A stretch of DNA of 32,000 nt from Halorhodospira halophila SL1 (GTDB lineage: Bacteria > Pseudomonadota > Gammaproteobacteria > Nitrococcales > Halorhodospiraceae). Under the pieces are notes generated by a model that was given only the letters and a program-made list of their open reading frames with translations, did not search any database and was not told where the DNA came from. Numbering within the stretch: the stretch's first letter is position 1; the number at the start of each line of letters is the position of its first letter. The DNA lies in contig NC_008789.1 in assembly GCF_000015585.1 (NCBI RefSeq), forward strand, positions 1 to 32,000, read 5' to 3'. Below are positions 1 to 19,657 of the stretch, piece after piece. The position numbers were made by a program, and so were the translations under genes.

Positions 1-34
1 ACTCTCCTGCGTTTCGGCCCCCGGCCACGCGGGG

Positions 35-664
35 TTAGAGATGGACGGCTGCGCGGCAGGCGACGAGGCAGGCCCGCCCCTGACCCGCGATGGCCGGCAG
101 TTCGTGAACGTCCAGCGCCTCGACGAGCGCCTCCGGGAGCTCCGCCAGCTCCTCTTGGATCCGCTCGCCCTTCAACGCCAGCAGGGCCCCGTCGGGGGCG
201 AGGAGCCCGCGGGTCCCCGGGATCAGTGTGGCCAACGGGGCCACGGCGCGCGCGGTGACCACAGCGAAGTCACCGTCATCCAGGGCCTCCATACGCGCCT
301 GGCGCACCTGAACGCGGTGCAGGCCCAGCTCCGTGGCGCACTGGCGAAGGAAGCGCGTTTTCTTGCCGTTGCTGTCGATCAGGGTCACCGATCGATCGGG
401 CTCAATCAGGGCCAGCACGAGCCCAGGGAAGCCGGCCCCGCTGCCCACATCGGCCAGCGCGCCGGCCGGGAGGTAACGTCGGACGACCAGACTGTCGAGC
501 AGGTGCCGGTCGATGAGCGTCTCGACGTCCCGCGCAGCAGTGAGATTGTACGCGCGATTCCAGCGCATGAGCAGGGACAGAAAGCCCTCGAGGCGCTCCA
601 GGGCCGGGGCGTCGAGTTCAATCTGGAGGTCTTCGAGCCGCGATTCCAGGTACTTACGCGGCAT
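35..664 (-). CDS. rsmG: 16S rRNA (guanine527-N7)-methyltransferase RsmG (GidB)
   Basis: The translation [17 protein letters not shown]...[12 protein letters not shown]...[14 protein letters not shown] shows the typical RsmG SAM-MTase motifs. It lies immediately downstream of mnmG and overlaps it. I prefer the ATG at 664 over the GTG at 670 used by the ORF track. The stop is TAA at 35-37. Confidence 0.9.
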
Positions 665-2555
665 CTTCACCTCCGGTCGGCGTGCGCAGCCAGCCGCGGC
701 GGCGTAGATGAATCAGCAGCAGCGAGATCGCGGCCGGGGTGACTCCGGGCAGGCGGGCCGCCTGCCCCACCGTTGCCGGGCGCATCCGGGTCAGCCGCTC
801 ACGGACCTCGGTGGACAGGCCGTCGATGGCGGCATAGTCAAGCGCTTCGGGGAGGCGGACCTGCGCGTACCGCTGGTGGCGCTGGTTCTCCAACTCCTGG
901 CGTTCCACATACCCGTCGTAGCGGGCCTCGATCTCCAGTTGCTGGACCGCGCGAACCGGGAGGTCGGCCTCCTCCAGGCCACCGATGAAGCGCACGTCAT
1001 CGTAGGAAAGTTCAGGACGGCGCAGCAGGTCGAACAGCGTCTGGTCTCGGCGCAGCGCGCCACCGAGACGGGCCTGCTGGGAGGCCGTCAGCCGGCCCGG
1101 GTGTACCCGCGTGCCGTTAAGACGCGCCCGCTCGGCGTTGAGGGCGTCGCGGTAACGGGCAAAACGCGTCCATTGATCGTCCCCGACCGAGCCCAGGCGG
1201 CGGCCGACCTCGGTCAGGCGGTCCTCGGCGTTGTCGTCGCGTAGGCGCAGCCGATGCTCAGCGCGGCTGGTGAACATGCGGTAGGGCTCGGTGACGCCTG
1301 TGGTGACCAGATCGTCAATCAAGACACCGATGTAGGCCTCCTCGCGGGTGGGGAACCAGGGATCCTCCCCCGCCGACACACGCGCCGCGTTGAGCCCGGC
1401 GATCAGACCCTGGGCGGCGGCCTCCTCATAGCCCGTGGTGCCGTTGATCTGGCCAGCCAGGTAGAGGCCAGCGATGGTGGCGCTCTCGAGCCACGGGGTG
1501 AGTCCCCGGGGATCGAGGTAGTCGTACTCGATCGCGTAGCCGGGACGCGTGATCCGGGCCGCCTCCAGGCCCGGCATACTGCGAATCAGGGCTTCCTGCA
1601 CGGTGAACGGCAAGCCGGTGGAGACTCCGTTGGGATAGAGCTCAGTGGCGTCGAGCCCCTCGGGCTCGAGGAAGACCTGGTGGTGGTCGCGGTCGGCGAA
1701 CCGGACGACCTTGTCCTCGATCGACGGGCAGTACCGGGGGCCCGACGACTGGATCGCGCCGCTGTACATCGGGGAGTGGTCCAGGGCATCGCGGATGATG
1801 CGGTGGGTCTCCGGCGTCGTCCAGCTGATCAGGCAGGCGGCCTCCGGCAGCGGCGCCTCCGGCGGGCGGAAGGGCGAGAAGAGCGGACGCGGGGTGTCGC
1901 CGTGCTGGGCATCGAGCTGCTCGACGGCCACTGTTCGCCGGTCGATGCGCGGCGGGGTGCCCGTCTTGAGACGGTGAACCGCAAGCCCAAGGTCGCGCAG
2001 CGATGCCGACAGGCGATCCGCCGCCGGGTCCCCGGCGCGGCCAGCGCTGTGCTGGACATGCCCGATGTGGATCTGGCCGGCGAGGAAGGTGCCAGCGGTC
2101 ACCACCACCGCATCGGCGTGAAGGGTCGCGCCGCTTTCTGTCCGTACGCCATAACAGCGCTGATCAGCGACCAGCAGCTCCTCGGCGGCGTCCTGGAGCA
2201 GGGCAAGGCCGGGCAAGGCGTCGAGTGCCCGGCGCGCGGCCCGGGCGTAGGTAGGGCGGTCGGCCTGGATGCGGGTGGCACGCACCGCCGGCCCCTTGCG
2301 CTGATTGAGGACCCGGGCGTGGATGGCGGATGCGTCCGCGAGCCGCCCCATCACCCCGCCTAGCGCGTCGATCTCGCGGACCAGGTGCCCCTTGCCAATG
2401 CCGCCGATCGCCGGATTGCAGGAGAGCGCGCCAATGGTCTCGAGGTTGTGCGTGATCAGGAGGGTCGAACGGCCCAGTCGGGCGGCGGCAGCCGCGGCCT
2501 CCGTGCCGGCATGCCCGCCGCCAATGACGATGACATCGAAGCGGTTGGTGTTCAT
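654..2555 (-). CDS. mnmG: tRNA uridine-5-carboxymethylaminomethyl synthesis enzyme MnmG (GidA)
   Basis: An internal ATG at 2555 gives [28 protein letters not shown]...[23 protein letters not shown], the canonical FAD-binding N-terminus of MnmG, and a 633-aa product. The 263 codons upstream of it in the 896-aa track ORF have no MnmG homology and run antisense to fabF. Confidence 0.93.
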
Positions 2556-2596
2556 GCGGGGATTTTGGGCCGCCGGGACGGAAGCCTCAAGGGGGA

Positions 2597-2612
2597 TGTT
2601 CCACGTGGAACC
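2597..2612. other. parS: parS-like ParB-binding centromere site, copy 1 (TGTTCCACGTGGAACC)
   Basis: It contains the perfect 14-bp palindrome GTTCCACGTGGAAC and matches the chromosomal parS consensus tGTTNCACGTGNAACa at 15/16. It lies 42 bp upstream of the mnmG start, in the mnmG-rsmG neighbourhood where chromosomal parS sites typically cluster. Confidence 0.7.
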
Positions 2613-2645
2613 AACTTGCGGGGCGAGGCGGCCGTCGACCGCCAC

Positions 2646-3773
2646 GTGGATGTTCCACGTGGAACTACGGTCCAGTTCGGCGGGACCATCGAAGGGTTCG
2701 ATGTGTCCCAGTACCTGCCGCGCAAAGAGGCGCGGCGGATGGATCCGTTCATCCACTACGCCTTTGGTGCCTGCGCCGAGGCCCTGGATGGGAGCGGCCT
2801 GGAGATCCGCGAGGACAACGCAGACCGGATCGGAGTGGCTATCGGTTCCGGCATCGGCGGGATCCAGGGGATCGAGACCGGGCACCAGGCGCTGATGGAA
2901 GGGGGGGCGCGCAAGGTATCCCCGTTCCTGGTGCCGAGCAGTGTGATCAACATGGCGCCCGGCAATCTGTCCATCCACTACGGGTTGCGGGGGCCCAACC
3001 TGTCGACGGTGACGGCCTGCGCAGCAGGGACCCACAACCTTGGGGTATCCGCCCGGATGATCGCCGCCGGTGACGCCGATGTCATGATCGCGGGTGGGGC
3101 GGAGAAGTGCATCACCCCGCTGGGCCTGGCGGCGTTCTCCTCCGCCCGGGCGCTGTCGACACGCAACGATGACCCGCAGGGCGCGAGTCGGCCCTGGGAC
3201 GTCGATCGCGACGGCTTTGTCCTCAGTGAAGGGGCCGCGGTCGTGGTGCTCGAATCCTACGCTCATGCGCGGAAGCGCGGGGCGACGATCCTCGCCGAGT
3301 TGGTCGGGTTCGGCACCAGTTCGGACGCTTACCACATCACTCAACCGGCGGAGAGCGGGGAGGGGGCGCAGCGCTGTATGGCGCGGGCCCTTGAAGACGC
3401 CGGCATGAATCCTTCAGACATCGACTATATCAACGCCCACGGGACGTCGACCCAGGTCGGCGATGTGGCCGAGGCGGCTGCGGTCAAGCGGCTGTTCGGT
3501 GCGGGCGCCGGCGACGTCGCCATGAGTTCCACCAAGTCGGCAACCGGACATCTGCTGGGTGCCGCGGGGGGTCTCGAGGCCGTATTCAGTGTTTTGGCCC
3601 TGCGTGACGGGATCATCCCGCCGACGTGCAACCTGGCCGAACCCGAAGCGGATTGTGCCGGGCTGGACCTGGTGCCGGGCGAGGCCCGGAAGCAGCCGCT
3701 GCGAGCGGTCCTCAGCAACTCTTTCGGATTCGGCGGGACGAACGCTTCCCTGATCTTCCGCAAGCCGAGCTGA
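2646..3773 (+). pseudogene. fabF: 5'-truncated beta-ketoacyl-ACP synthase II (FabF/KAS II) remnant, or an N-terminally shortened CDS
   Basis: Homology to FabF begins at [13 protein letters not shown]...[14 protein letters not shown] (about nt 2668), which corresponds to E. coli FabF residue ~49 (KFAGLVKDF...RKEQRKMDAFIQYG). The catalytic Cys (VTACAAG) and both His motifs (NAHGTST, TGHLLGAAG) are intact, as is the C-terminus GFGGTNASLIFRK. Roughly 47 N-terminal residues have no room to exist, because the mnmG start is at 2555. The only in-frame starts are TTG 2613, GTG 2646, GTG ~2700 and ATG 2739. Confidence 0.75.
2651..2666. other. parS: parS-like ParB-binding centromere site, copy 2 (TGTTCCACGTGGAACT)
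   Basis: This is the second exact copy of the 18-bp unit GGATGTTCCACGTGGAAC (2648-2665). The first copy is at 2594-2611, 54 bp away start to start. An overlapping partial third core CCACGTGGA sits at 2642-2650. Confidence 0.7.
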
Positions 3774-3786
3774 GAAGTGGGGGGCT

Positions 3787-4653
3787 TTGAGCCGTAAGCA
3801 ACTGGTCAACGGCCGCGCGGATACGGCCCTCGACGCCGAGGATCGCGGCCTCGCCTATGGCGATGGACTGTTCGAGACCGTAGCGGTCAGCCGCGGTCGG
3901 CTATGCCTCTGGGACTACCACATGGATCGGCTCCTAGACGGCGCGCGCCGACTCGGGCTGCCCGAGCCGCCCTTGGCCACCCTGCGGGAAGAGGCCCGTT
4001 TCCTCACCGAGAAGGTGGAGCGGGGCGTACTGAAGGTGGTCTACACCCGCGGCAGCAGTGAGGGTCGTGGCTACCTGCCGCCTGCCAGGCCAATCCCCAC
4101 GCGAATCCTGACACTGCACAATACTCCGGCGATTCCGCCGGAGCGCTGGCAGGGGGTTGATGTCCGGCTCTGTCGGACCCGCATCAGCACGCAACCCCGG
4201 CTGGCCGGCATCAAGCATCTCAATCGCCTGGAGCAGGTGATGGCCCGATCCGAATGGCGGGATGCCGCCATCGCCGAGGGCTTGATGCTCGACGCCGACG
4301 GGCTCATCGTGGAAGGCACAGCGACCAACCTCTTCGGAATCCGCAATCGGGTGCTCATGACGCCCCCTCTCACACATTCAGGCGTGGCCGGTGTGATGCG
4401 GCGCTGGGTCCTGGAGTACGCCGAGACGCTCGGGCTGCGGGTCGAGCAGCGTGGCTTCTACCCGGGCGAGGTGTCCGAGATGGACGAGCTTTTTCTGACC
4501 AACAGCCTGATCGGCCTCTGGCCCGTCCGTTCCGTGGCGGGTACGCAGATACCGGTCGGACCGGTGAGTCAGCGCTATCTCCAGGCAATCGCCGATCATG
4601 GGCTCACCCCGTTGGTTGAGGAGCCGGCGATGCGCGGCGGGGCAGGGCGTTGA
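3787..4653 (+). CDS. pabC: aminodeoxychorismate lyase (class IV PLP aminotransferase fold)
   Basis: The translation shows RGLAYGDGLFETV...YHMDRL... and class IV aminotransferase features. It holds the conserved position between fabF and mltG. The start is TTG. Confidence 0.8.
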   Translation: MSRKQLVNGRADTALDAEDRGLAYGDGLFETVAVSRGRLCLWDYHMDRLLDGARRLGLPEPPLATLREEARFLTEKVERGVLKVVYTRGSSEGRGYLPPARPIPTRILTLHNTPAIPPERWQGVDVRLCRTRISTQPRLAGIKHLNRLEQVMARSEWRDAAIAEGLMLDADGLIVEGTATNLFGIRNRVLMTPPLTHSGVAGVMRRWVLEYAETLGLRVEQRGFYPGEVSEMDELFLTNSLIGLWPVRSVAGTQIPVGPVSQRYLQAIADHGLTPLVEEPAMRGGAGR

Positions 4654-5675
4654 TCGGGCGCGTACCGCGACGACGCTGGTGGGTCGTCGCCGTGGCTCTG
4701 GTGTTTGTTGTGTCGTCGGGAGTCGGCGGATGGCTGTTCTACGAGCTCGATCACCGTCCACTGGAGGTCAGCGCCCCCCCCGAGATCCTCGAGGTCCCCC
4801 GCGGAGGGTCCTTGCACGCCATCTCCCGGGGTCTCGAGTCCCGTGGCTGGATCCCCGGATCGACGCGCCTCGCGTTGCGAATCTACGGTCGCCTCAGCGA
4901 CATCTCGGGTGAGCTCAAGGCCGGCGAGTATGTCGTCGAGCAGGGTATGAGCGTGCGTCAGCTGCTGGCGCGGATCCGTGCCGGGCGGGTCAAGCTGCAC
5001 CGCCTGACCGTCGTCGAGGGTTGGACGTTCGCGCGGCTGCGCCAGGAGCTGGGCCAACACGAGGCCGTGGAGCAGACCCTGGACGGGGTGGAAGACGAGC
5101 AGATCATGGAGGAGCTGGGGCTCGAGGCGTCTCACCCCGAGGGGATGTTTTTCCCGACCACCTACCGCTTTCCGCGTGGCGCGACCGACCGTGATCTGCT
5201 CCGGGTCGCTGCTCGGCAGATGCGCCAGGAGCTGGCGCGGGTGTGGAGCGAGCGCCACCCGGAGGTGCCCCTGGACGAGCCCTACCAGGCGCTGATCCTC
5301 GCCTCGATTATTGAGCGCGAGACCGGGCGCGATGATGAGCGCCGCAAGGTGGCGGGGGTGTTCACCCGGCGCCTGGAGCAGGGTATGCGCCTGCAGACGG
5401 ATCCCACCGTGATCTACGGTCTGGGCGATGACTACGACGGCCGCCTGCGCCGGGCTGACCTGCGACGCGATACGCCCTACAACACGTATACGCGCCACGG
5501 TTTGCCGCCGACCCCGATCGCCCTTCCCGGGCGGGCGTCGTTGGAGGCCGCCGTGGACCCGAAACCGGGTAGTGCGCTGTACTTTGTGTCACGCGGGGAT
5601 GGCAGCCACCACTTCTCGGATACGCTGGACGAGCATAATCAGGCGGTGCGACGCTACATCCTGGAGGAGAAGTGA
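4650..5675 (+). CDS. mltG: endolytic murein transglycosylase MltG (YceG family)
   Basis: It has an N-terminal TM helix (WWVVAVALVFVVSSGVGGW) and the YceG motifs LKAGEY, LASIIERET and YNTYTRHGLPPTPIALPG. The TTG start overlaps the pabC stop (TTGA). Confidence 0.88.
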   Translation: MIGRVPRRRWWVVAVALVFVVSSGVGGWLFYELDHRPLEVSAPPEILEVPRGGSLHAISRGLESRGWIPGSTRLALRIYGRLSDISGELKAGEYVVEQGMSVRQLLARIRAGRVKLHRLTVVEGWTFARLRQELGQHEAVEQTLDGVEDEQIMEELGLEASHPEGMFFPTTYRFPRGATDRDLLRVAARQMRQELARVWSERHPEVPLDEPYQALILASIIERETGRDDERRKVAGVFTRRLEQGMRLQTDPTVIYGLGDDYDGRLRRADLRRDTPYNTYTRHGLPPTPIALPGRASLEAAVDPKPGSALYFVSRGDGSHHFSDTLDEHNQAVRRYILEEK

Positions 5676-6319
5676 CCGAGCGAGGGTGTTTCATCACGGT
5701 GGAGGGGCTGGAAGGGGCTGGTAAGACCACCTGTCTACAGGCTATCGAGCAGATGCTGCTTGAGGCCGGCATCGACCGCCCCCTGTTTACCCGGGAGCCT
5801 GGCGGAACCCCGTTCGGGGAAGCGCTGCGCGGCGCGCTCTTGGATCCGCAGTACCGCGGCCTGACGGCAGAGGCCGAGGCGTTGACCGTGTTCGCGGCCC
5901 GTGCCGAACATCTGGCGCAAGTCATCCGGCCCACGCTGGATGCCGGACGCTGGGTGATCAGTGATCGCTTCACGGATGCTACCTATGCTTATCAGGGGGG
6001 TGGCCGTGGCCTTGGCGATGAACGGATTGCTGTGCTGGAGCGCTGGGTTCACGGTGGGTTCACGCCGGACCGCACGCTCCTGCTGGACGTGGACCCCACG
6101 GTGGGGCGGTCACGGGTCGCCCACCGAGGCGACGGAGAAGACCGCTTTGAGCAGGAGCGGGATCCCTTCTTCCAAGCCGCGCGCGCCGCTTACGCCCGAC
6201 GCGCCGCAGCAGATCCCGAGCGCTTCCGCTGCATCGACGCCAACCGGCCCGAGGGCGAGGTGGCGGAACAGGTACGTGCCGGAGTGGCCGATCTCTTGCC
6301 GGTGGGTGGACGACCGTGA
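5672..6319 (+). CDS. tmk: thymidylate kinase
   Basis: The translation starts FITVEGLEGAGKTT (P-loop) and contains DRFTDATYAYQG. The GTG start overlaps the mltG stop (GTGA), with a GGAGGAG RBS at 5663-5669. Confidence 0.92.
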   Translation: MTERGCFITVEGLEGAGKTTCLQAIEQMLLEAGIDRPLFTREPGGTPFGEALRGALLDPQYRGLTAEAEALTVFAARAEHLAQVIRPTLDAGRWVISDRFTDATYAYQGGGRGLGDERIAVLERWVHGGFTPDRTLLLDVDPTVGRSRVAHRGDGEDRFEQERDPFFQAARAAYARRAAADPERFRCIDANRPEGEVAEQVRAGVADLLPVGGRP

Positions 6320-7371
6320 GCGAGGCCGCCCATCTCTCGGACTGGATCACGCCCCGGGACGGGCGGGAGCAACTCCCGCCGTGGCTGCTGCCGGAGCTGG
6401 ACCGGTTGCTCACCCTCCACGATCAGGGCCGGCTCCATCACGCGCTGTTGCTGACGGGTCGCACCGGCCTTGGCAAACGGCTCCTGGCGGGCGTCCTGGC
6501 CCGGGCGCTGCTCTGTCAGGCGGACGAGGGGGGCGGGGCGCGGCCCTGCGGTCAGTGCCGGGGTTGCCATCTGACCGGCGGGGGTTCCCACCCCGATTTG
6601 CGCACGCTGAGTCCGAGTAGCCGCGGCGAGCGCGGTGAGATCGTGGTCGACAGCGTGCGTGGGCTGGTCGATTTCCTGCATCTGAGCGCGCAACGGGGGG
6701 GGAGTCGGGTGGCGGTGATCGTTCCTTGTGATCGCCTCAACCGCGCCGCCGCCAACAGCCTGCTCAAAACCCTGGAGGAGCCACCTCCGGGCGTCTTCCT
6801 GATCTTGGCCACCGGTCGGCCCGGACGGCTGCCGCCGACCGTACGAAGCCGATGCACCGTACGTGGCCTGACGCCGCCGGCCTGGGACGCAGCGCGGCGG
6901 TGGCTGGCCGAGCGCGCGGGCGGGGCCGAGGGCCGGGTCGACAAGGCGCTCGCGCTGGCCGGCGGCATGCCGCTGACTGCCGAGCAGATCCTCCATGAGC
7001 AGGGGCTGGAGGGATACGAGTCGCTGCTCCAGCAGCTGCACCGCCTCAGCGCCGGAGGAGACCCGGTCAAGGAGGCCGAGGCCTGGGAGGGGGCGCCGGA
7101 GGCACTGGCCGACGCCGTTACAGCGATCCTGGCGGATCTACTGCGTCAACGCCACGGGGCGCCGGATCGCGGACTACTGCCGTCGCCGCTGGCACAGCAG
7201 CTGGTCCGCGAAGCCTCGGTGGAGGCGCTCCACCAGGCGTTCTTGCGTATCGGCGAGCATCGGCGCGGCCTCGAGCAGCCTCTGAATGGCCGTCTGGCCG
7301 CCGAGGCGATCTTCCTCGACCTGGCCGCCGCCTTGCGGCCCGCTCGTCAATCCGCCGCCAGACAGGCGTGA
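6316..7371 (+). CDS. holB: DNA polymerase III subunit delta-prime
   Basis: Motifs are HALLLTGRTGLGKRLLA, the zinc-module-like CGQCRGCH and the SRC motif (VRSRC). The GTG start overlaps the tmk stop. It holds the conserved position after tmk. Confidence 0.88.
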   Translation: MSEAAHLSDWITPRDGREQLPPWLLPELDRLLTLHDQGRLHHALLLTGRTGLGKRLLAGVLARALLCQADEGGGARPCGQCRGCHLTGGGSHPDLRTLSPSSRGERGEIVVDSVRGLVDFLHLSAQRGGSRVAVIVPCDRLNRAAANSLLKTLEEPPPGVFLILATGRPGRLPPTVRSRCTVRGLTPPAWDAARRWLAERAGGAEGRVDKALALAGGMPLTAEQILHEQGLEGYESLLQQLHRLSAGGDPVKEAEAWEGAPEALADAVTAILADLLRQRHGAPDRGLLPSPLAQQLVREASVEALHQAFLRIGEHRRGLEQPLNGRLAAEAIFLDLAAALRPARQSAARQA

Positions 7372-8477
7372 AGCCGCCGCCAGGCTTCCTCCAGGTCCTC
7401 GGCTGTGTTGTAAAAATGTGGCGAGAAGCGGATCCCGCCGCAGCGCGAGGCACACGCCACGTCACGGGCACGCAGCGCCGCCAGGAGACGCTCCGGATCC
7501 GCTCCCGGTACGCGGAAGGTCACGATGCCGGCGTGCCGTTGCGGCTCCGACGGTGTAACCAGCTCAAAGCCGTGGCGCTGGACTCCCTCCATGGCGTGCC
7601 GGGCGTTTTCCAGGACGCGCCGCTCGACCTCGTCCAGGCCGACCTCTTCTAGGACGGCCAAGCTGGCCTCGAGGGCGTGGGAACCGAGCAGATTGGGGCT
7701 ACCCGGCTCCAGGCAGCGACCGTTGCCGGCCGGATCCCAGCCAGGGCGGTCGAATGCGCCGAGCTCGTCGGCCATGTGCCAACCGATCTGCCAGAGCCTT
7801 AACTTGTCGCGCACCCGCGGGTGGACGTACAGACCGCCAATGCCTTCCGGACCAAGCATCCACTTGTGGCCATCGGCGACGATAAAGTCGGCATCCACCG
7901 ACAGCCTCAGCGCCCCCAGGGTCTGGATGGCATCGACGCACAGCAGGATGCCGCGTTCGCGGCAGGCGGTGCTCAGGCGCTCCAGATCCATGCGCAGCCC
8001 GGTGCCGTACTGGACGCTGCTCACCGGCAACAGTCGGGTTCGCGGTGTCAGGGCGTCGATCAGGGCGTCTTCGGGCGTGGCGCCGTCACTCAGTCGGACC
8101 TGGCGAACGTGGACACCGTAGTGCTCGGCGAGCGACTGCCAGACCCAGCGATTGGAGGGAAATTCCTGGTCGTTGATGACCACCTCATCCCCGGGGTGCC
8201 ACGTGACCCCATGCGCAACCATCGACAGGCCCGCTGAGGTGTTGGGAACCAGGGCGATGTCCTCCGCTGCGGCGTCACCGACCCCCATCAGTCGGGCGAG
8301 CCGGGCACGCAGCCGGTCTTCGGCCTCAAGCCATTGGGGGTAGTCCGCGGCGCCCCGGTGCAGGCACTCATCCGCGAACCGATGGACGGCATCCCGCGTT
8401 CGCTGCGGCCAGGTGCCGACGCCAGCGTGGTTGAGGTAGACCAGGTTTGGGTCCAACGGGAACTCTGGGTGGGCCAT
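7347..8477 (-). CDS. class V PLP-dependent aminotransferase / cysteine desulfurase-like enzyme
   Basis: The translation shows VYLNHAGVGTWP, VPNTSAGL and a PLP-lysine context ADGHKWMLGPEGIGGLYV. The specific substrate cannot be assigned from sequence alone. Confidence 0.8.
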   Translation of the reverse strand: MAHPEFPLDPNLVYLNHAGVGTWPQRTRDAVHRFADECLHRGAADYPQWLEAEDRLRARLARLMGVGDAAAEDIALVPNTSAGLSMVAHGVTWHPGDEVVINDQEFPSNRWVWQSLAEHYGVHVRQVRLSDGATPEDALIDALTPRTRLLPVSSVQYGTGLRMDLERLSTACRERGILLCVDAIQTLGALRLSVDADFIVADGHKWMLGPEGIGGLYVHPRVRDKLRLWQIGWHMADELGAFDRPGWDPAGNGRCLEPGSPNLLGSHALEASLAVLEEVGLDEVERRVLENARHAMEGVQRHGFELVTPSEPQRHAGIVTFRVPGADPERLLAALRARDVACASRCGGIRFSPHFYNTAEDLEEAWRRLHACLAAD

Positions 8478-8583
8478 CGCCGTTGCCTTTGTGGTTGCAG
8501 CGGTGAACGACCGAGTATACCGAGCCGTTGGCGGGTTGTCGGCAAGCCCGCCGGCCGCAGCCGCCGTGTCGCCGGCACGCCTG

Positions 8584-8611
8584 GGGCCGTGGAAGGTATA
8601 TTATGTTAAAT
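8584..8611 (+). other. dif: dif-like XerC/XerD recombination site (GGGCCGTGGAA GGTATA TTATGTTAAAT)
   Basis: The XerD arm TTATGTTAAAT (8601-8611) matches E. coli dif 11/11. The central hexamer GGTATA matches TGTATA 5/6. The XerC arm GGGCCGTGGAA matches GGTGCGCATAA only 6/11. It is the only strongly AT-rich island in a 234-bp intergenic region of a GC-rich window. Confidence 0.6.
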
Positions 8612-8711
8612 AGCCCGCGACCCCAAGAGAAGGAAGGCCGGCCGTGGTCCCTGACTCAGTGGTCGGATGCGCCCTGTCCGGCGCCCTACCCACCCCGAGA
8701 GCTTTTACGCC

Positions 8712-9485
8712 TCAGACTTGCCGTGTCTCCCGCCATCGCTGGGCGTGCTCCTCGTCAGCGATATTCCACTCGTGCTCGATGAACTGTTTATCTCCGGTCT
8801 CCAGCAACGCCCACAGGATGAAGTCGGCAGCGTCCTCGGGGCTGTGAAGCTGACCGTTCTGCTTAAGCTTGATGAAGCGATCCACGGCCGGGAAGCGCTC
8901 CGGGGTCTGGGTCCGGATGTGATCCTGCATGGGGGTATCCACCACGCCCGGGCGAACCGAGCCGACCAGGATCCCCTCGCGCCATAACTCTTCGCGGTAG
9001 ATCTGGTAGACCATGAACAGCGCAGCCTTGCTGGTGCAGTACGCACCCCAGCCCATGGACGGCTTGTGCGCCGCTCCCGACGAGATATGCAGGATTCGGC
9101 TTCCCGGCTCCATGAGTGGCAGCAGCCCCTGGCTGAGGAAGACCGGCGCTTCCACGTTAACCGCCATGGCTTTCCGCCAGGCGTCGAGGTCCACGTCCTT
9201 GAGCGGTCCCACCGGATCGAGAAGACCGGCATTGTGGATGACCGCGCGCACCGTGTAGCCCTGCGCGGCCTCGATGATGTGTCCGCGCTCGTCAGCATGG
9301 GCGATATCCGCGCTGAGTGTGCGAATCCGGTCTGAATCGGCGGTGGCGGTTTCGGCGAGCGCCTCAGGGCGTCGCCCGACCGTGAGCACCTGGGCTCCGT
9401 CCCGGGCAAGCCCGCGCACCAGTGCCCTGCCCAGGCCGCTACCACCACCGGTCACGACCACCAGTTCGTTCTCATGCCACCTCAT
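8712..9485 (-). CDS. short-chain dehydrogenase/reductase (SDR) family oxidoreductase
   Basis: It has the cofactor motif VVVTGGGSGLGRA and the catalytic YCTSKAAL (YxxxK). I prefer the ATG at 9485 because AAGGAG lies 5 nt upstream; the track GTG at 9500 sits inside that RBS context. Confidence 0.85.
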   Translation of the reverse strand: MRWHENELVVVTGGGSGLGRALVRGLARDGAQVLTVGRRPEALAETATADSDRIRTLSADIAHADERGHIIEAAQGYTVRAVIHNAGLLDPVGPLKDVDLDAWRKAMAVNVEAPVFLSQGLLPLMEPGSRILHISSGAAHKPSMGWGAYCTSKAALFMVYQIYREELWREGILVGSVRPGVVDTPMQDHIRTQTPERFPAVDRFIKLKQNGQLHSPEDAADFILWALLETGDKQFIEHEWNIADEEHAQRWRETRQV

Positions 9486-9577
9486 GTTGCGCTCCTTCAC
9501 TCAACGATCGGCCTGCTCACCGCGATGGCACGCCTGACTTCAATTCGATTCAGTGAACAGTGTAACGAGTCAGACAA

Positions 9578-10555
9578 TCACAGGTCGCTGTCCGGACCAA
9601 TGATCCGATTCGGCGGCACTCCCCCCGTTGCAAACGCCACCAGATTATCGCGCAGCTGCTCGACAATGCGGCGTCGCGCCTCCAGCGCCGACCAAGCGCT
9701 GTGCGGTGTGACGGTAACGTTCGGTAGATCCGCGGCCAGTAGCGGGTGGTCCGGCGGGGGGGGTTCCTGTGTCAGGACGTCGAGCGCGGCCGCCCCGATC
9801 TCTTCGTTCCGCAGTGCCGTGGCGAGCGCCGACTCATCCACCAATCCCCCCCGGGCGGTGTTGACCAGCAGTGCATCGCTGCGCATTCGCCGCAGCGCCC
9901 CGGCGTCGATCATCCCGGCTGTCTCCTCCGTCAGCGGGCAATGCAGGCTCAGCACGTCCACTTCCGGCAGCAACTCGTCAAACGGGACCCGGCCCACCCG
10001 GCAGCGATGGGCCGAGGGCCGCTCGGCCAGCCATACCTCCATGCCGAGGGCTTGCGCAAACGCCGCAACCCGCTGCCCCAGAGTGCCGTAACCGACAACC
10101 CCCAGGCGCCGACCGGCAATCTCGCGCTGGGCGGGATCGATCAGGCTAAAGTGCGGCGCCCGGCTCCACTCCCCGTCCCGAACCCGGGCGGTGAACGCCG
10201 GGATGCGTGTGAAATGGTTCAGGACCAGAGTGAGCGTATGCTGAGCGACGGCCGTGGTGCCGTAATCCTGGCAGTTGGTGACCGTGATGCCCCGCCGCCG
10301 GGCGGCTTCCAGGTCCACGTTGTTGGTGCCCGTAGCCGCAACGGCGATCAGCCGCAGCTTCGGCAAGCAGCTGAGGATCCCGGCGTCGAGGACGACCTTG
10401 TTGACGATGGCCGCCTCTGCCGGCTCGAGTCTAGGGAGCAACGCCTCGGGACGGGTTCGGGGGTAGCACTCAAGGGGGTCAGCCGCCTGTTGCAGCGGCG
10501 TCAGATCCAGGTCACCGGGGTCCAGGGACCCCGCGTCGAGGAAGACGGTATGCAT
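9578..10555 (-). CDS. D-isomer-specific 2-hydroxyacid dehydrogenase (glycerate dehydrogenase / hydroxypyruvate reductase-like)
   Basis: The translation shows LRLIAVAATGTNNVDLEAARRRGITV, the NAD motif GVVGYGTLGQRVA and TPHSAW near the C-terminus. Confidence 0.85.
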   Translation of the reverse strand: MHTVFLDAGSLDPGDLDLTPLQQAADPLECYPRTRPEALLPRLEPAEAAIVNKVVLDAGILSCLPKLRLIAVAATGTNNVDLEAARRRGITVTNCQDYGTTAVAQHTLTLVLNHFTRIPAFTARVRDGEWSRAPHFSLIDPAQREIAGRRLGVVGYGTLGQRVAAFAQALGMEVWLAERPSAHRCRVGRVPFDELLPEVDVLSLHCPLTEETAGMIDAGALRRMRSDALLVNTARGGLVDESALATALRNEEIGAAALDVLTQEPPPPDHPLLAADLPNVTVTPHSAWSALEARRRIVEQLRDNLVAFATGGVPPNRIIGPDSDL

Positions 10556-10657
10556 AGCGTGGAATCGGTCCCGGTCAGAACACCACCTGACGAGCGGTTG
10601 CGCGCCAGCCTGTTCGCTATTCTATGACCTTTCAGCCCGTGAAACAGGAGGCAACTG

Positions 10658-11284
10658 ATGATGCCGCAAGGCAGTGGCACCGGCCCGTCCCCTTCCTCGG
10701 ACGCCCTGAATCAGGCGGCACGGCTGCCTGCCCCCCTACCGGTCATTGCGGTCACTGGCTACTCGGGGGCCGGCAAAACAACCCTGCTGACCGGTCTGGT
10801 TACCCAGATGCGCAGCGCCGGCTGGTCCCCTGCGGTGGTCAAACATGCTCACCACGGATTTGATATGGACCGCCCCGGTAAGGACAGCTACCGGGTGCGG
10901 GAAGCCGGTGCCGAGCAGGTTCTGGTGGTTTCCGCTCAGCGCTGGGCCCTGCTGACGGAGACTCCGACTGAGGAGCATGATGACGACCTGCTGGTGACCA
11001 GGCTGCGCGCCATCGACCCGACTCGAGCCGACGTCATACTCGCCGAAGGCTTCCGCCACAGTGGCGCGGGGCAATTGCTGGTCCATAGCCAACGCACCGG
11101 AGTCGAGCGTCCCGACTTCCAGGCGCCGGGCGTACTTGGCGTGGCCACCGACGACCCCGAAGCTGTGCCGCCTGGCCTCCCCTGCCTCGATCTCGATGAT
11201 CACGCTGGCCTGGCCGCCTTCGTTGAGCGTTGCATCCACGGCATTATAAGCCGTGCTCGCGGGAACCAGGCGGGCGAGTATTAA
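10658..11284 (+). CDS. mobB: molybdopterin-guanine dinucleotide biosynthesis adapter protein MobB
   Basis: Motifs are VIAVTGYSGAGKTTLL (P-loop) and VVKHAHHGFDMDRPGKDSYR. An AGGAGG RBS lies at 10646-10651. The protein carries an N-terminal extension of about 28 aa relative to typical MobB. Confidence 0.85.
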   Translation: MMPQGSGTGPSPSSDALNQAARLPAPLPVIAVTGYSGAGKTTLLTGLVTQMRSAGWSPAVVKHAHHGFDMDRPGKDSYRVREAGAEQVLVVSAQRWALLTETPTEEHDDDLLVTRLRAIDPTRADVILAEGFRHSGAGQLLVHSQRTGVERPDFQAPGVLGVATDDPEAVPPGLPCLDLDDHAGLAAFVERCIHGIISRARGNQAGEY

Positions 11285-11434
11285 CAAGAAAAATCAGGAG
11301 GTTAAAAGACCTTTCGCCCTTCCCTGCGGGCGGCCCCGGGGTTACATTGATCGACGCGGCACCCCGTTGTGGGTGAGCCGATAACAATCACAACACCCCG
11401 GGGACGGTGACAACCTCAAGCAGGGAGGGGACCC

Positions 11435-13339
11435 ATGAGCTACCAGGAGACTTATTGGGAGTCGATCAACGATCCGGAGGCGTTCTGGCTACGTGAGGCG
11501 CAGCTGCTGCAGTGGATCGCTGAGCCTCCTGCCGCCCTGAGCCTGGATGAGCAGGGTCGGCAGCGGTGGTTCCGTGGGGGGCGCCTGAACGTCTCCCAGC
11601 TGGCCCTGGATGCCCATGTCGAGGCCGGTCGGGGCGAACAGCCTGCCCTCCTCTACGACTCCCCGGTGAGTGGTTCCCGCGAGCAATACACCTACCGGCA
11701 GCTGCTGGACGAGGTGTCCCGAGCCGCGGGGATGCTGCGCGATCTCGGTGTCGGGCATGGCGACCGGGTCGTTATCTATATGCCCATGATCCCCGAGGCG
11801 GTCATCGCCATGCTCGCCTGCGCGCGGCTGGGTGCCATCCACTCGGTGGTCTTCGGTGGTTTCGCCGCCAACGAACTGGCGGTACGGATCGATGACGCCA
11901 ACCCCCGGGTTGTCCTGACGGCGAGCTGTGGGATCGAAGTCGATCGGGTCATCCCCTATCAACCACTGGTCGATGAGGCCCTACGCCGCGCGGAACACAA
12001 GCCAGCGCGGGTCGTTTACGTCAGCCGGCCTCAGGCCCAGGTGGCGTGGGACGAAAATCGGGATCTGGACTGGCACACGCAGCTGGCGCAGTCGGCCCCG
12101 GCAGAGCCGGTGGCCGTGGATGCCACGGATCCCCTCTACATCCTCTACACCTCCGGGACGACCGGAAAACCCAAGGGGGTGGTCCGGGATAGCGGCGGAT
12201 ACGCCGTGGCACTGAATTGGAGCCTCGGGGCGATCTACGACCTCCACCCCGGCGACGTTTTCTGGACCGCCTCGGATGTCGGCTGGGTCGTCGGCCACTC
12301 CTACATTGTCTACGGCCCCCTGATTCGCGGCTGCACGACCGTCGTCTACGAAGGCAAGCCGGTGCGGACCCCGGATGCCGGCGCGTTTTGGCGCGTGATC
12401 TCGGAGTATCGCGCAAAGGCGTTCTTCACCGCCCCCACCGCCTTTCGGGCAATCAAGAAGGAAGACCCCGAGGCACGCCACCTGCAGGACTACGATCTCT
12501 CCTGCCTGGAGAATGTCTTTGTCGCCGGTGAGCGGCTGGATCCCCCCACCTACGAGTGGCTTTCGCAAACCCTGCAACGGCCCGTGATCGATCACTGGTG
12601 GCAGACGGAGACGGGTTGGCCCATCGTTGCGAACCCGATGGGCATCGAGCCCCTGCCCATCAAGAGTGGCTCGGCCACCGTGCCCATGGCCGGCTACGAC
12701 ATCCGCGTGCTCGACGATTCCGGCCGCGAGCTCCCCGCCGGCGAGCAGGGCAACCTGGCCATCCGGCTCCCGCTGCCGCCCGGCTGTCTGCCAACCCTCT
12801 GGAATGATGAGGCCCGCTTCCGGAAGTCCTACCTGGAGCGTTTCCCTGGGTTCTACGACACCTCGGACGGCGGATTGATCGATGAGGATGGTTACGTCTA
12901 CGTGATGGGCCGGGTGGACGATGTGATCAACGTCGCCGGCCATCGCCTCTCCACCGGGGAGATGGAGGAGGTCATCGGTGATCACTCGGCGGTGGCGGAA
13001 TGCGCCGTGGTTGGCATCCACGACGACACCAAGGGTGAGCTGCCAGTGGCCTTCGTGGTGCTCAAAGACGGGACCGACATCGATCAGGAACGAATCGAGG
13101 AGGATCTGGTAGCCATGATCCGTAACGAGATCGGGGCCATCGCCTCCCTTCGCCGCGTCGCCGTGGTTCAGAAGTTGCCCAAGACCCGTTCCGGGAAGAT
13201 CCTGCGCAAAAGCATCCGGACACTGGCGAAGGAGGCGCGGGAACAGGTCCCCACCCCGTCGACCATCGACGACGCCTCCAGCCTTGACGAGATCGCTGAT
13301 GCGATTCAGACCTACAACCTGGGGCGCTACGCCTCCTGA
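11435..13339 (+). CDS. prpE: propionate--CoA ligase (acyl-CoA synthetase, PrpE-like)
   Basis: The match is collinear with PrpE throughout: YMPMIPEAVIAMLACARLGAIHSVVFGGFA, IDDANP, YTSGTTGKPKGV, GGYAVAL, DVGWVVGHSYIVYGPL, LPKTRSGKILR and the C-terminal TIDDASSLDEI. Confidence 0.85.
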   Translation: MSYQETYWESINDPEAFWLREAQLLQWIAEPPAALSLDEQGRQRWFRGGRLNVSQLALDAHVEAGRGEQPALLYDSPVSGSREQYTYRQLLDEVSRAAGMLRDLGVGHGDRVVIYMPMIPEAVIAMLACARLGAIHSVVFGGFAANELAVRIDDANPRVVLTASCGIEVDRVIPYQPLVDEALRRAEHKPARVVYVSRPQAQVAWDENRDLDWHTQLAQSAPAEPVAVDATDPLYILYTSGTTGKPKGVVRDSGGYAVALNWSLGAIYDLHPGDVFWTASDVGWVVGHSYIVYGPLIRGCTTVVYEGKPVRTPDAGAFWRVISEYRAKAFFTAPTAFRAIKKEDPEARHLQDYDLSCLENVFVAGERLDPPTYEWLSQTLQRPVIDHWWQTETGWPIVANPMGIEPLPIKSGSATVPMAGYDIRVLDDSGRELPAGEQGNLAIRLPLPPGCLPTLWNDEARFRKSYLERFPGFYDTSDGGLIDEDGYVYVMGRVDDVINVAGHRLSTGEMEEVIGDHSAVAECAVVGIHDDTKGELPVAFVVLKDGTDIDQERIEEDLVAMIRNEIGAIASLRRVAVVQKLPKTRSGKILRKSIRTLAKEAREQVPTPSTIDDASSLDEIADAIQTYNLGRYAS

Positions 13340-13348
13340 CCCGGCCAC

Positions 13349-13376
13349 CCGGGCGCAGCGCGAGTGCTGCGTCCGG
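13349..13376. terminator. GC-rich hairpin between convergent prpE and mtfA (possible bidirectional terminator)
   Basis: It forms an 11-bp stem (CCGGGCGCAGC / GCTGCGTCCGG, with one G-U pair) and a 6-nt loop. There is no clear U-tract. Confidence 0.35.
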
Positions 13377-13399
13377 TTACCATGCGCCCCCCCCTCCCG

Positions 13400-14158
13400 C
13401 TAGCCCAGAGACCAGCCGTAGAACCGCGCTAGCTGCCGGTAGACCTCCGGAAAGGCCCGTCGAAGCCGGTGCGGATCGGCGAAGAACGTCTCCGTGGCCA
13501 CCGCGAAGAACTCACCAGGGTCTTGCCCGGCGTAGGGGTCGAGCGGAGTTACGGCGCACGCTCCCTCGGCCGCGTAGGCCTCCATGGTGTGAAAAGCGGG
13601 CAGGAACGCCGCCGACCAGTCATCAACGGTCATCCCGCGTGGCAGGGGGGGCAGACCGTTGACTGCTCCTTGCCCCATATCGAGCTTATGGGCGCACTCA
13701 TGGATGACGACGCTGCTCCCCGGCTCCGGTGCCAGGGCATCTTCCAGGGAGAGTACCAGCGGCCCGCCCTCCCACGCCTCGCCAATCAGGGGGCCCTGCT
13801 CGACGTGAACGACCCCGTCCTCGTCCTCATACTCGTGGGTGGCCACGAAACCGGCTGGATAAAGGAGAATGGTCGTCCAGGGCGCATACCAATCCACGCC
13901 CAATTCAAGCACCGGCACCGCCGCCTGAAGCGCCACGGTATCGACCGCCAAGGCATCGAGGGTAACCCCGGCCACGCCCTCGAAGCGCTTTTCGTGGATC
14001 AGCGCAGTCGCCGCAGCAGCCAACCGTTGCCGTGTACCGGGGGGCAGTCGGCGCAAGCCTGGCAGCGCTGCCTCGGCACGGCTCCAGGCGGCGGGCGAAA
14101 GCCGGTAGCGCTGCGCTATACGCTGACGCCGCCAGTTACGCAGCCATCCCACGTGCAC
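13400..14158 (-). CDS. mtfA: MtfA-like zinc-dependent peptidase (M90 family, Mlc titration factor A homologue)
   Basis: The match is collinear with E. coli MtfA: VPVLELGVDWY, the HExxH motif IHECAHKLD and DPYAGQDPGEFFAVATETFFADP. Confidence 0.82.
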   Translation of the reverse strand: MHVGWLRNWRRQRIAQRYRLSPAAWSRAEAALPGLRRLPPGTRQRLAAAATALIHEKRFEGVAGVTLDALAVDTVALQAAVPVLELGVDWYAPWTTILLYPAGFVATHEYEDEDGVVHVEQGPLIGEAWEGGPLVLSLEDALAPEPGSSVVIHECAHKLDMGQGAVNGLPPLPRGMTVDDWSAAFLPAFHTMEAYAAEGACAVTPLDPYAGQDPGEFFAVATETFFADPHRLRRAFPEVYRQLARFYGWSLG

Positions 14159-17876: not shown

Positions 17877-18401
17877 ATGGTTAAGCAACACAGTTACAAC
17901 CGAGACGAACTCCTGCTGAGCGGTCACGGTCGGCTCTTCGGGCCGGGCAACCCCCAGCTACCCAGCCCGAACATGCTCATGTTCGACCGGATCACGCGCA
18001 TCAATGAAGATGGAGGTCAGTACGGCAAGGGTGAGGTCGTCGCGGAGCTCGATGTCCATCCGGAGCTCTGGTTCTTCCGTTGTCACTTTGCGGGGGATCC
18101 GGTCATGCCCGGATGCCTGGGACTGGACGCGCTCTGGCAGATGGTCGGTTTCTACCTCGGTTGGATCGGGGGCCACGGGGCCGGTCGTGCGCTGGGCTGT
18201 GGCGAGGTCAAATTCACCGGTCAGATACTCCCGGACAATCGGCTGGTTACGTACAATGTGGCGCTCAAGAGGGTGATCAACCGCCGATTGGTCATGGGGA
18301 TCGCCGATGGCAGCGTGGCCGTCGACGGTGAGACGATTTACGAAGCTACTGATCTGAAAGTCGGGCTCTTCCAGAACACCGGCGAGCTGAACGGGGCATA
18401 G
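17877..18401 (+). CDS. fabA: 3-hydroxydecanoyl-ACP dehydratase / trans-2-decenoyl-ACP isomerase
   Basis: Motifs are [15 protein letters not shown] and the active-site region [23 protein letters not shown]. The length is 174 aa. Confidence 0.93.
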
Positions 18402-18439: not shown

Positions 18440-19657
18440 GTGCGTCGAGTGGTGATTACCGGTCTGGGCATCGTGTCGTGCATCGGCAACAGCCGCGACG
18501 AAGTCACGGCATCTTTGCGGGCCGGCAAATCCGGGATCCGATACCAGCCCGAATACGAGGAGGTCGGCCTGCGCAGCTTGGTGGCCGGGAGTTGCGATGT
18601 CGATGTGCAGGCCCTTATCCCGCGTAAGTCCCTACGCTTCATGGGCGATGCTGCGGCCTACAGCTACATTGCGATGGACCAGGCGATTGCCGATGCGGGT
18701 CTCGACTATGCGGCGATCTCCAGCCCGCGCGTGGGTCTGATTGCCGGCTCCGGCGGTGCTTCGACGGCGAACATCGTCAGCGCCACCGAGACCCTGCGCA
18801 CCCGGGGCGTTCGCAAGATCGGCCCCTACGGCGTCACGCGGACCATGGGCAGCACGGTCTCGGCCTGCCTGGCAACGCCGTTCCAGATCAAGGGCCTCAA
18901 CTACTCCATCACCTCCGCCTGCGCGACCAGCGCCCACTGTGTCGGCGCTGCCATGGAGCAGATCCAGCTGGGCAAGCAGGATGTGATCTTCGCCGGAGGC
19001 GGCGAGGAAGAGCACTGGTCTCTCACCCAGCTGTTCGATGGGATGGGCGCGTTGTCCACCAAGTACAACGATACGCCGGAGCAGGCGTCGCGCCCTTACG
19101 ATGCCAGCCGCGACGGTTTCGTGATTGCCGGCGGCGGTGGAATGGTCGTGGTCGAAGCCCTTGAGCACGCCCAGGCGCGCGGTGCCCCGATCCTCGCTGA
19201 GCTGGTCGGTTTCGGTGCGACGTCGGATGGGTACGACATGGTTGCCCCGTCCGGCGAGGGGGCCGCACGTTGCATGAGGCAAGCCCTGGAGGGAGTCGAG
19301 GGGCCCGTGGACTACATCAATACCCACGGTACCAGTACGCCGGCCGGGGATATCGCCGAACTGGAGGCGACGCGAGAGGTCTTTGGCGAGTGCATGCCGC
19401 CGATGTCCTCGACCAAGTCCCTCACCGGCCACTCGCTGGGTGCCACCGGAGTCCAGGAGGCAATCTACTCGTTGCTGATGATGGAGCACGGGTTCATCTC
19501 ACCATCGATCAATATCGAGCAACTCGACCCTGAGGCGGGAGATGTGCCCATGGTCACCGAGACGCGCGAGGGCGTCACCCTCAACACCGTGCTCACCAAC
19601 AGTTTCGGCTTCGGCGGGACGAACGCGACGCTGGCACTGCGCCGTTTCGACGGCTGA
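18440..19657 (+). CDS. fabB: beta-ketoacyl-ACP synthase I
   Basis: The translation shows [16 protein letters not shown], the catalytic Cys in [22 protein letters not shown] and GHSLGATG, and ends [11 protein letters not shown]. It lies immediately downstream of fabA. The start is GTG. Confidence 0.9.

Follow-up and report, generated by a model that had tools for sequence, protein, structure and literature searches.

An origin-to-dif inversion in the Halorhodospira halophila SL1 reference record, mapped to the base and most likely a finishing error

The fabF fragment and the parS sites beside it

The window, by which we mean the whole 32,000-nt stretch of Halorhodospira halophila SL1 DNA analysed here, begins with rsmG and mnmG and continues past two parS sites into the 3' part of fabF, the pabC-mltG-tmk-holB genes, a dif-like site and the fabA-fabB pair (Table 1). 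The original prediction had placed the start of FabF homology at nt 2668, with the first 47 codons missing and only 112 nt left before the divergent mnmG start, and had counted 367 uninterrupted codons that keep a Cys-His-His triad; all of this holds. DNA homology to intact Halorhodospira fabF starts exactly at nt 2668, which falls on the middle base of codon 47 and leaves V48 as the first complete residue. The spacer between the break and mnmG does run for 112 nt (2556-2667), codons 48-414 are open throughout, and the motifs TACAAG (Cys), NAHGTST (His) and TGHLLGAAG (His) are kept, aligning with C163, H303 and H340 of E. coli KAS II.

Table 1. Features of the window that bear on the junction
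Feature	Coordinates	Strand	Remarks
rsmG (gidB)	35..670	-	Pfam GidB, TIGR00138; 100 % to BN9630 locus L007; origin-proximal left-arm gene
mnmG (gidA)	654..2555	-	TIGR00136, 800 bits; intact; SL1 protein ABM60797.1
parS copy 1	2597..2612	.	TGTTCCACGTGGAAC[C/T]; native to mnmE-mnmG spacer
parS copy 2	2651..2666	.	TGTTCCACGTGGAAC[C/T]; native to mnmE-mnmG spacer
orphaned mnmE stop (TAG)	2665..2667	-	CTA; last origin-side sequence before the junction
fabF 3' fragment	2668..3773	+	codon 47 position 2 to stop; residues 48-414
pabC, mltG, tmk, holB	3787..7371	+	Pfam; order the same in all relatives; transcribed towards dif
dif-like XerC/D site (GGGCCGTGGAAGGTATATTATGTTAAAT)	8584..8611	+	22/28 to E. 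coli dif, 16/16 centre plus XerD arm
fabA	17877..18401	+	NCBIfam FabA, 296 bits; intact
fabB	18440..19657	+	KAS I NF005935, 694.9 bits (cut-off 630), full length; intact

At the protein level, the match begins at position 43 of 407 in TIGR03150 and at position 79 of 252 in Pfam PF00109, of which positions 1-78 are missing, and the N-terminal thiolase-fold domain expected of this ~410-aa protein is incomplete; nothing in the fragment corresponds to residues 1 to ~46 of the E. coli KAS II structure, which form part of the core sheet. The parS-derived peptide HVDVPRGTT resembles E. coli HFDTSAYAT and was considered as upstream homology, a reading rejected by the DNA alignment to intact fabF. In GenBank, ABM60798.1 (385 aa) is the window's open reading frame from TTG 2616, letter for letter, across the junction (…/VQFGG…, the slash marking the break here and below), and RefSeq WP_244857307.1 (356 aa) is the fragment annotated from GTG 2703; both lie on the SL1 contig of 2,678,452 bp. 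Since ABM60798.1 spans the break, the finished record CP000544 contains exactly the junction 2667/2668. Seventeen residues of the GenBank version derive from translation of the parS spacer.

Could this short reading frame nevertheless encode a functional, naturally N-terminally shortened KAS II, starting from TTG 2616, GTG 2646, GTG 2703 or ATG 2739? The frame is open and the triad kept, the fragment scores 554.5 bits against TIGR03150 (cut-off 493.75) and 565 against NF005589 (cut-off 387), and GenBank and RefSeq both call it an ordinary beta-ketoacyl-ACP synthase II, not a pseudogene. However, FabF measures ~406-420 aa in nearly all of the 120 closest homologues, with a handful of shorter entries at 345-403 aa that stem mostly from short contigs, and the only truncated members of the 90 % cluster of the closest FabF are the two SL1-record annotations. 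Every Halorhodospira relative has a FabF of 414-415 aa, so that none shares the shortened length, and the N-terminus MDD(R/Q)AVVVTG is present in 7/7 sequences read. A promoter/terminator scan of 2300-3000, a weak one, found no site, and hence nothing promoter-like in the 112-nt spacer. With no such site, no native start, the first 47 residues gone and 100 % identity to the fabF of H. halophila BN9630 downstream of the break, which leaves no time for adaptation, a naturally short isoform is highly improbable. Any truncated product is unlikely to function, as beta1-alpha1-beta2 at the core of the thiolase fold would be gone; should the junction exist in cells, the fragment is a newly made pseudogene.

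The two putative 16-bp parS sites are close to TGTTNCACGTGAAACA and share a perfect 14-bp palindromic core; 0.05 matches are expected per window by chance, and the four strand-matches found here occurred in 0/100 shuffles. In the intact locus they sit near parAB and the origin, with parA-parB just past rsmG and dnaA 4 kb away. The break lies 1 nt from parS copy 2, rather than the 2-3 nt first proposed, and that single retained nucleotide, together with the last 2 bases of the parS copy, forms the complement of the TAG that ends mnmE. The same overlap is seen in the unrearranged locus, where the stop of mnmE reaches into parS copy 2 (L007 9886-9905, equivalent to window 2651-2667; …GGAAAATAGTTCCACGTGGAACA), and the mnmE-mnmG spacer, 109 bp long, consists essentially of the two parS sites 54 bp apart.

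The parental loci and the reciprocal junction

Both sides of the break have exact counterparts in H. halophila BN9630 (GCA_016583685.1, NRRO01), a genome with an ANI of 99.99 % to SL1 (Imhoff et al. 2022, PMC8877833). By blastn, window 1-2667 is the BN9630 mnmE-parS-parS-mnmG locus (L007) at 100 %, with 0 mismatches over 2,667 nt and 0 gaps, and window 2668-13773 is its intact acpP-fabF-pabC locus (L088), also at 100 %, with 0 mismatches over 11,106 nt and 0 gaps, the latter match ending at 13773 where the fetched BN9630 DNA ends. Exact reconstruction against these two loci sets junction 1 at 2667/2668, where it reads …GGAACTA/CGGTCCAG…. In window orientation the parental sequences are …GATGTTCCACGTGGAACTA/TTTTCCGATACAG… and …GACACGTCCAGCTATT/CGGTCCAGTTC…, and the BN9630 mnmE-mnmG locus reads ...TTCTGTATCGGAAAATAG/TTCCACG at the break.

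BN9630 encodes the exact MnmG protein adjoining mnmE. Upstream of mnmG it has mnmE, yidC, yidD, rnpA and rpmH, with dnaA-dnaN-recF-gyrB divergent past rpmH, and downstream of mnmG come rsmG, parA, parB and the atp operon. Its fabF is intact (414 aa), sits in a canonical fab cluster and lies on a different contig from mnmG. The synteny breakpoint that had been proposed between mnmG and the fab block is genuine in the sequence; the relatives have plsX-fabH-fabD-fabG-acpP upstream of fabF (6 assemblies of the nearest species group, plus H. halochloris). BN9630 and two Logan assemblies, those of SRR5961519 and SRR9436782, all carry the canonical mnmE-mnmG junction at 100 % identity. A 44-mer across the SL1 junction had no exact match in the GTDB representative genomes, and a protein-guided scan of the same genomes returned no H. 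halophila locus among the matches listed. The uninverted arrangement is the wild type in the species, and the flip is private to one reference record, CP000544.

The stated source of BN9630 is Wadi el-Natrun (Egypt), and SL1 comes from Summer Lake, Oregon; the two are nevertheless 100 % identical over 13.7 kb here, and from this identity they may be the same strain or the product of a culture mix-up. They also differ in their DnaA call (470 aa in BN9630, L007 4543-5955, versus 449 aa in SL1 and most relatives), a start-codon discrepancy only.

If the origin-side half of one locus has been joined to the fab-side half of another, where are the two remaining halves? A search for the missing fabF 5' end elsewhere in the genome, which the original prediction had called for, finds it with acpP-fabG-fabD, adjoining mnmE and, by protein-ID order, ~1,200 genes away. 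The SL1 protein IDs run from MnmG (ABM60797), FabF' (60798) and PabC (60799) to DnaA (62002), YidC (62005), MnmE (62006), AcpP (62007), FabG (62008) and FabD (62009), and from this order mnmE followed by acpP-fabG-fabD is exactly what a reciprocal inversion predicts. The end of MnmE agrees: the SL1 protein is the BN9630 protein plus one residue (…FCIGKE), and a fusion of mnmE, minus its stop codon, with fabF nt 1-140 in reverse complement gives …AAA GAA TAG and a protein of 469 aa. Had the fabF piece ended one base earlier or later, the product would be 476 or 551 aa, so that only nt 1-140 reproduces SL1 MnmE; no sequence was therefore lost, and C140 of fabF is found at both junctions, a 1-bp duplication. 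Junction 1 is read directly, and junction 2, deduced from the protein-ID order and the extra glutamate of MnmE, is predicted to read …CCAGCTATTC/TTTTCCGATACAG… in window orientation.

CP000544 thus carries a reciprocal inversion with breakpoints known to the base: the two novel junctions, the second as deduced above, hold all of the parental sequence, and the block between them is reversed. This block comprises 1,209 of the 2,407 protein IDs, one end lying 3,934 bp from the dnaA start and the other 5,916 bp from the dif-like site. The inverted arc, ~1.3 Mb from the last sense codon of mnmE to fabF codon 47, turns one whole replichore relative to the other, so that fabF codons 48-414 now adjoin mnmG with its two native parS sites, and mnmE ends where it meets the fabF 5' portion and acpP-fabG-fabD. 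Two other readings were tried and rejected. A window wrapping round the ends of the circular record is incompatible with the translation of ABM60798.1 across the junction and with the consecutive protein IDs of MnmG and FabF', and a deletion instead of an inversion is incompatible with the retention of both dnaA…mnmE and acpP-fabG-fabD in the SL1 record, where they are adjacent. The reciprocal origin-to-dif inversion of half the chromosome was not visible to the original prediction, which placed the anomaly precisely and had its mechanism wrong.

That mechanism was recombination at or between the parS repeats, with the palindrome itself duplicated in the process, and its one attraction is the single nucleotide that separates the break from parS copy 2. 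The rearrangement did not, however, create the duplication: the two parS copies, at an identical 54-bp spacing and with identical flanks, pre-exist in the unrearranged mnmE-mnmG spacer of BN9630 and of the SRR5961519 and SRR9436782 assemblies. Nor does the partner locus offer a site to recombine with, as no parS-like sequence occurs at ≤4 mismatches in the 21 kb surrounding the intact fabF. The two parental breakpoints have CTATT as their only shared sequence, which the junction does not use cleanly, and their best local similarity is at noise level, with no shared homology. Taken together, the pre-existing copies, the fabF locus devoid of parS and the mere CTATT in common exclude parS-mediated recombination for practical purposes, and we consider it highly improbable. 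On the reading that a finishing error made the junction, the parS sites are, we infer, bystanders.

The far end of the inverted block brings us to the putative terminus. The dif-like site is intergenic, the sole such site in the window and, by its sequence, a putative dif, with ~1,200 of the 2,407 protein IDs between it and dnaA. It lies at the same syntenic position in five related loci, from BN9630, BN9621-type assemblies, an uncultured Ectothiorhodospiraceae MAG and H. halochloris (25/28), and this conservation across Halorhodospira would place the fab-holB cluster right at the terminus in the genus. The site sits between a class-V aminotransferase gene and an SDR gene, with convergent transcription on its flanks. 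BN9621/9622-type strains have an extra cytochrome-b (Ni_hydr_CYTB) gene beside dif (locus L001 16164-16730, versus window 8478-8711) and, since this gene is absent from SL1 and BN9630, the position next to dif is an indel hotspot.

After a replichore flip of this kind, GC skew should keep one sign all the way round the chromosome. Within the window, skew profiled in 2-kb bins is so noisy locally that no switch shows up, either at the junction or at dif. Across the whole chromosome, SL1 was singled out as 'continuously biased', with a skew that 'does not shift its polarity', a behaviour left unexplained (Arakawa et al. 2009, PMC2804667). The inversion explains this published non-shifting skew and, as no compositional adjustment has followed, the event was instantaneous on an evolutionary scale.

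Finishing error or real inversion

The original prediction offered a recent truncation or an artificial join, and this was the right pair of alternatives. We regard the inversion as most likely a finishing or in-silico mis-orientation, i.e. one half of the chromosome would have been cut-and-pasted or force-joined in the wrong orientation during finishing or sequence handling, and the living organism would have no inversion and an intact fabF; the feature is then most probably not biological. On the other hand, a real, very recent and illegitimate (non-homologous) reciprocal inversion in the SL1 subculture sequenced by JGI is unlikely, though well short of negligible. Its breaks would fall at the edge of a ParB-bound parS copy 2 and in fabF near the terminus, fabF would be a true pseudogene, and FabB would carry elongation.

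Several observations speak for the unlikely event. The two junctions are mutually consistent to the base, and a 1-bp duplication fits the repair of two staggered double-strand breaks; a break that abuts parS could reflect a nucleoprotein roadblock, and the other, <6 kb from dif, falls in a region possibly prone to breakage. E. coli fabF nulls are viable and, with fabB and fabA both intact in the window, the loss of fabF need not be lethal here; fabA-fabB, 15 kb from the truncated fabF, supply the second elongating condensing enzyme of the cell. The finished record was built from 12x Sanger coverage with stated checks for mis-assembly, and the genome paper documents no manual tear/join step (PMC3746430). 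This bears directly on the artefact, as repeat-free novel junctions need spanning reads at 12x in Phrap and an assembler cannot invent them, so that an error would require manual or in-silico manipulation, a tear or a join. Moreover, both junctions are internal to the protein-ID numbering, and the simple scenario of two contigs concatenated with one flipped needs a later rotation of the record. Finally, BN9630 is nominally another isolate (Wadi Natrun), and its gene order is no strict proof for that of SL1 cells.

Yet the junction recurs in no independent data set, neither in BN9630 nor in the two Logan read-set assemblies, and near-identical BN9630 is canonical; within the 90 % FabF cluster, too, truncation is confined to the two SL1-record annotations. 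The intact 414-aa FabF carries the UniParc number UPI00006B51EC, which is 187 away from that of SL1 PabC (UPI00006B52A7), whilst proteins of the BN strains of Halorhodospira from 2021 carry numbers of the form UPI0019…; from the age of the first number we infer that FabF was intact in the 2006 draft of SL1 itself. The cut is clean, with no homology, no loss and a 1-bp duplication, and looks like an off-by-one cut-and-paste. A real flip would also reverse an entire replichore relative to replication, to KOPS/dif polarity and to the position of parS, leaving half of the genome head-on to replication and parS/parAB beside dif. An arrangement that reverses a replichore should be strongly counter-selected and, with no obvious selective advantage to set against this, fixation would need an improbable bottleneck. 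These points together lead us to favour the finishing error.

What each outcome would mean is quite different. CP000544 is the type-strain reference for the genus, and a model genome for work on photoactive yellow protein and on extreme halophiles. If one half of it has the wrong orientation, the short FabF annotation is an error, the extra MnmE residue is spurious, and origin/terminus predictions, skew statistics and synteny comparisons drawn from CP000544 are misleading; the exact junction coordinates let curators correct the record. Were the inversion real, which we think doubtful, the type-strain culture would be living with one entire replichore inverted and fabF destroyed. Half of its genes, its KOPS polarity and its GC skew would oppose replication, and parS/parAB would sit next to dif and not the origin. 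The event would have joined, with no repeat involved, the ends of a break bordering a ParB-bound parS and of a break in the terminus region, and would offer a rare natural test of how far a bacterium can tolerate replichore disorganisation.

Comparison with known rearrangements and mis-oriented genomes

Large inversions that run head-on to replication are familiar from inversion strains of B. subtilis and E. coli, and from the IS-mediated inversion of half the chromosome in Lactococcus lactis. Like these, the SL1 inversion is reciprocal, spans about half of the chromosome and leaves gene content unchanged except for the breakpoint genes. Almost all natural survivors, however, either show symmetry around the origin or terminus or were mediated by repeats, whereas the SL1 flip reverses a whole replichore, is repeat-free and is known from a sequence record only. 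The fate of fabF also has a laboratory parallel: loss-of-function alleles of E. coli fabF are viable with fabA-fabB and show reduced cis-vaccenate. Here too the gene for condensing enzyme II is inactivated and fabA-fabB kept, but SL1 loses codons 1-47 together with the promoter/acpP context, and does so through a junction that may not exist in vivo.

Also comparable are the mis-oriented segments in 'complete' bacterial genomes that GC-skew tests detect, among them the GC skew index (Arakawa et al. 2009, PMC2804667) and SkewIT, an approach reported by Lu and Salzberg in 2020. As in those cases, the skew of SL1 is inconsistent with the order of its record, and re-inverting a defined block would restore the normal two-replichore pattern. 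Mis-oriented segments usually flip between rRNA operons or IS elements; in SL1, by contrast, the ends are repeat-free, interrupt two genes and map to the origin and to dif. When the GC skew index was introduced, chromosome II of Pseudoalteromonas haloplanktis TAC125 was named alongside SL1 for its non-shifting skew (Arakawa et al. 2009, PMC2804667). The two share a skew of one sign round the replicon, but in TAC125 chromosome II it stems from genuine unidirectional replication over evolutionary time, whereas in a genome 99.99 % identical to SL1 both breakpoints show the normal gene order, and the flip therefore explains the SL1 pattern.
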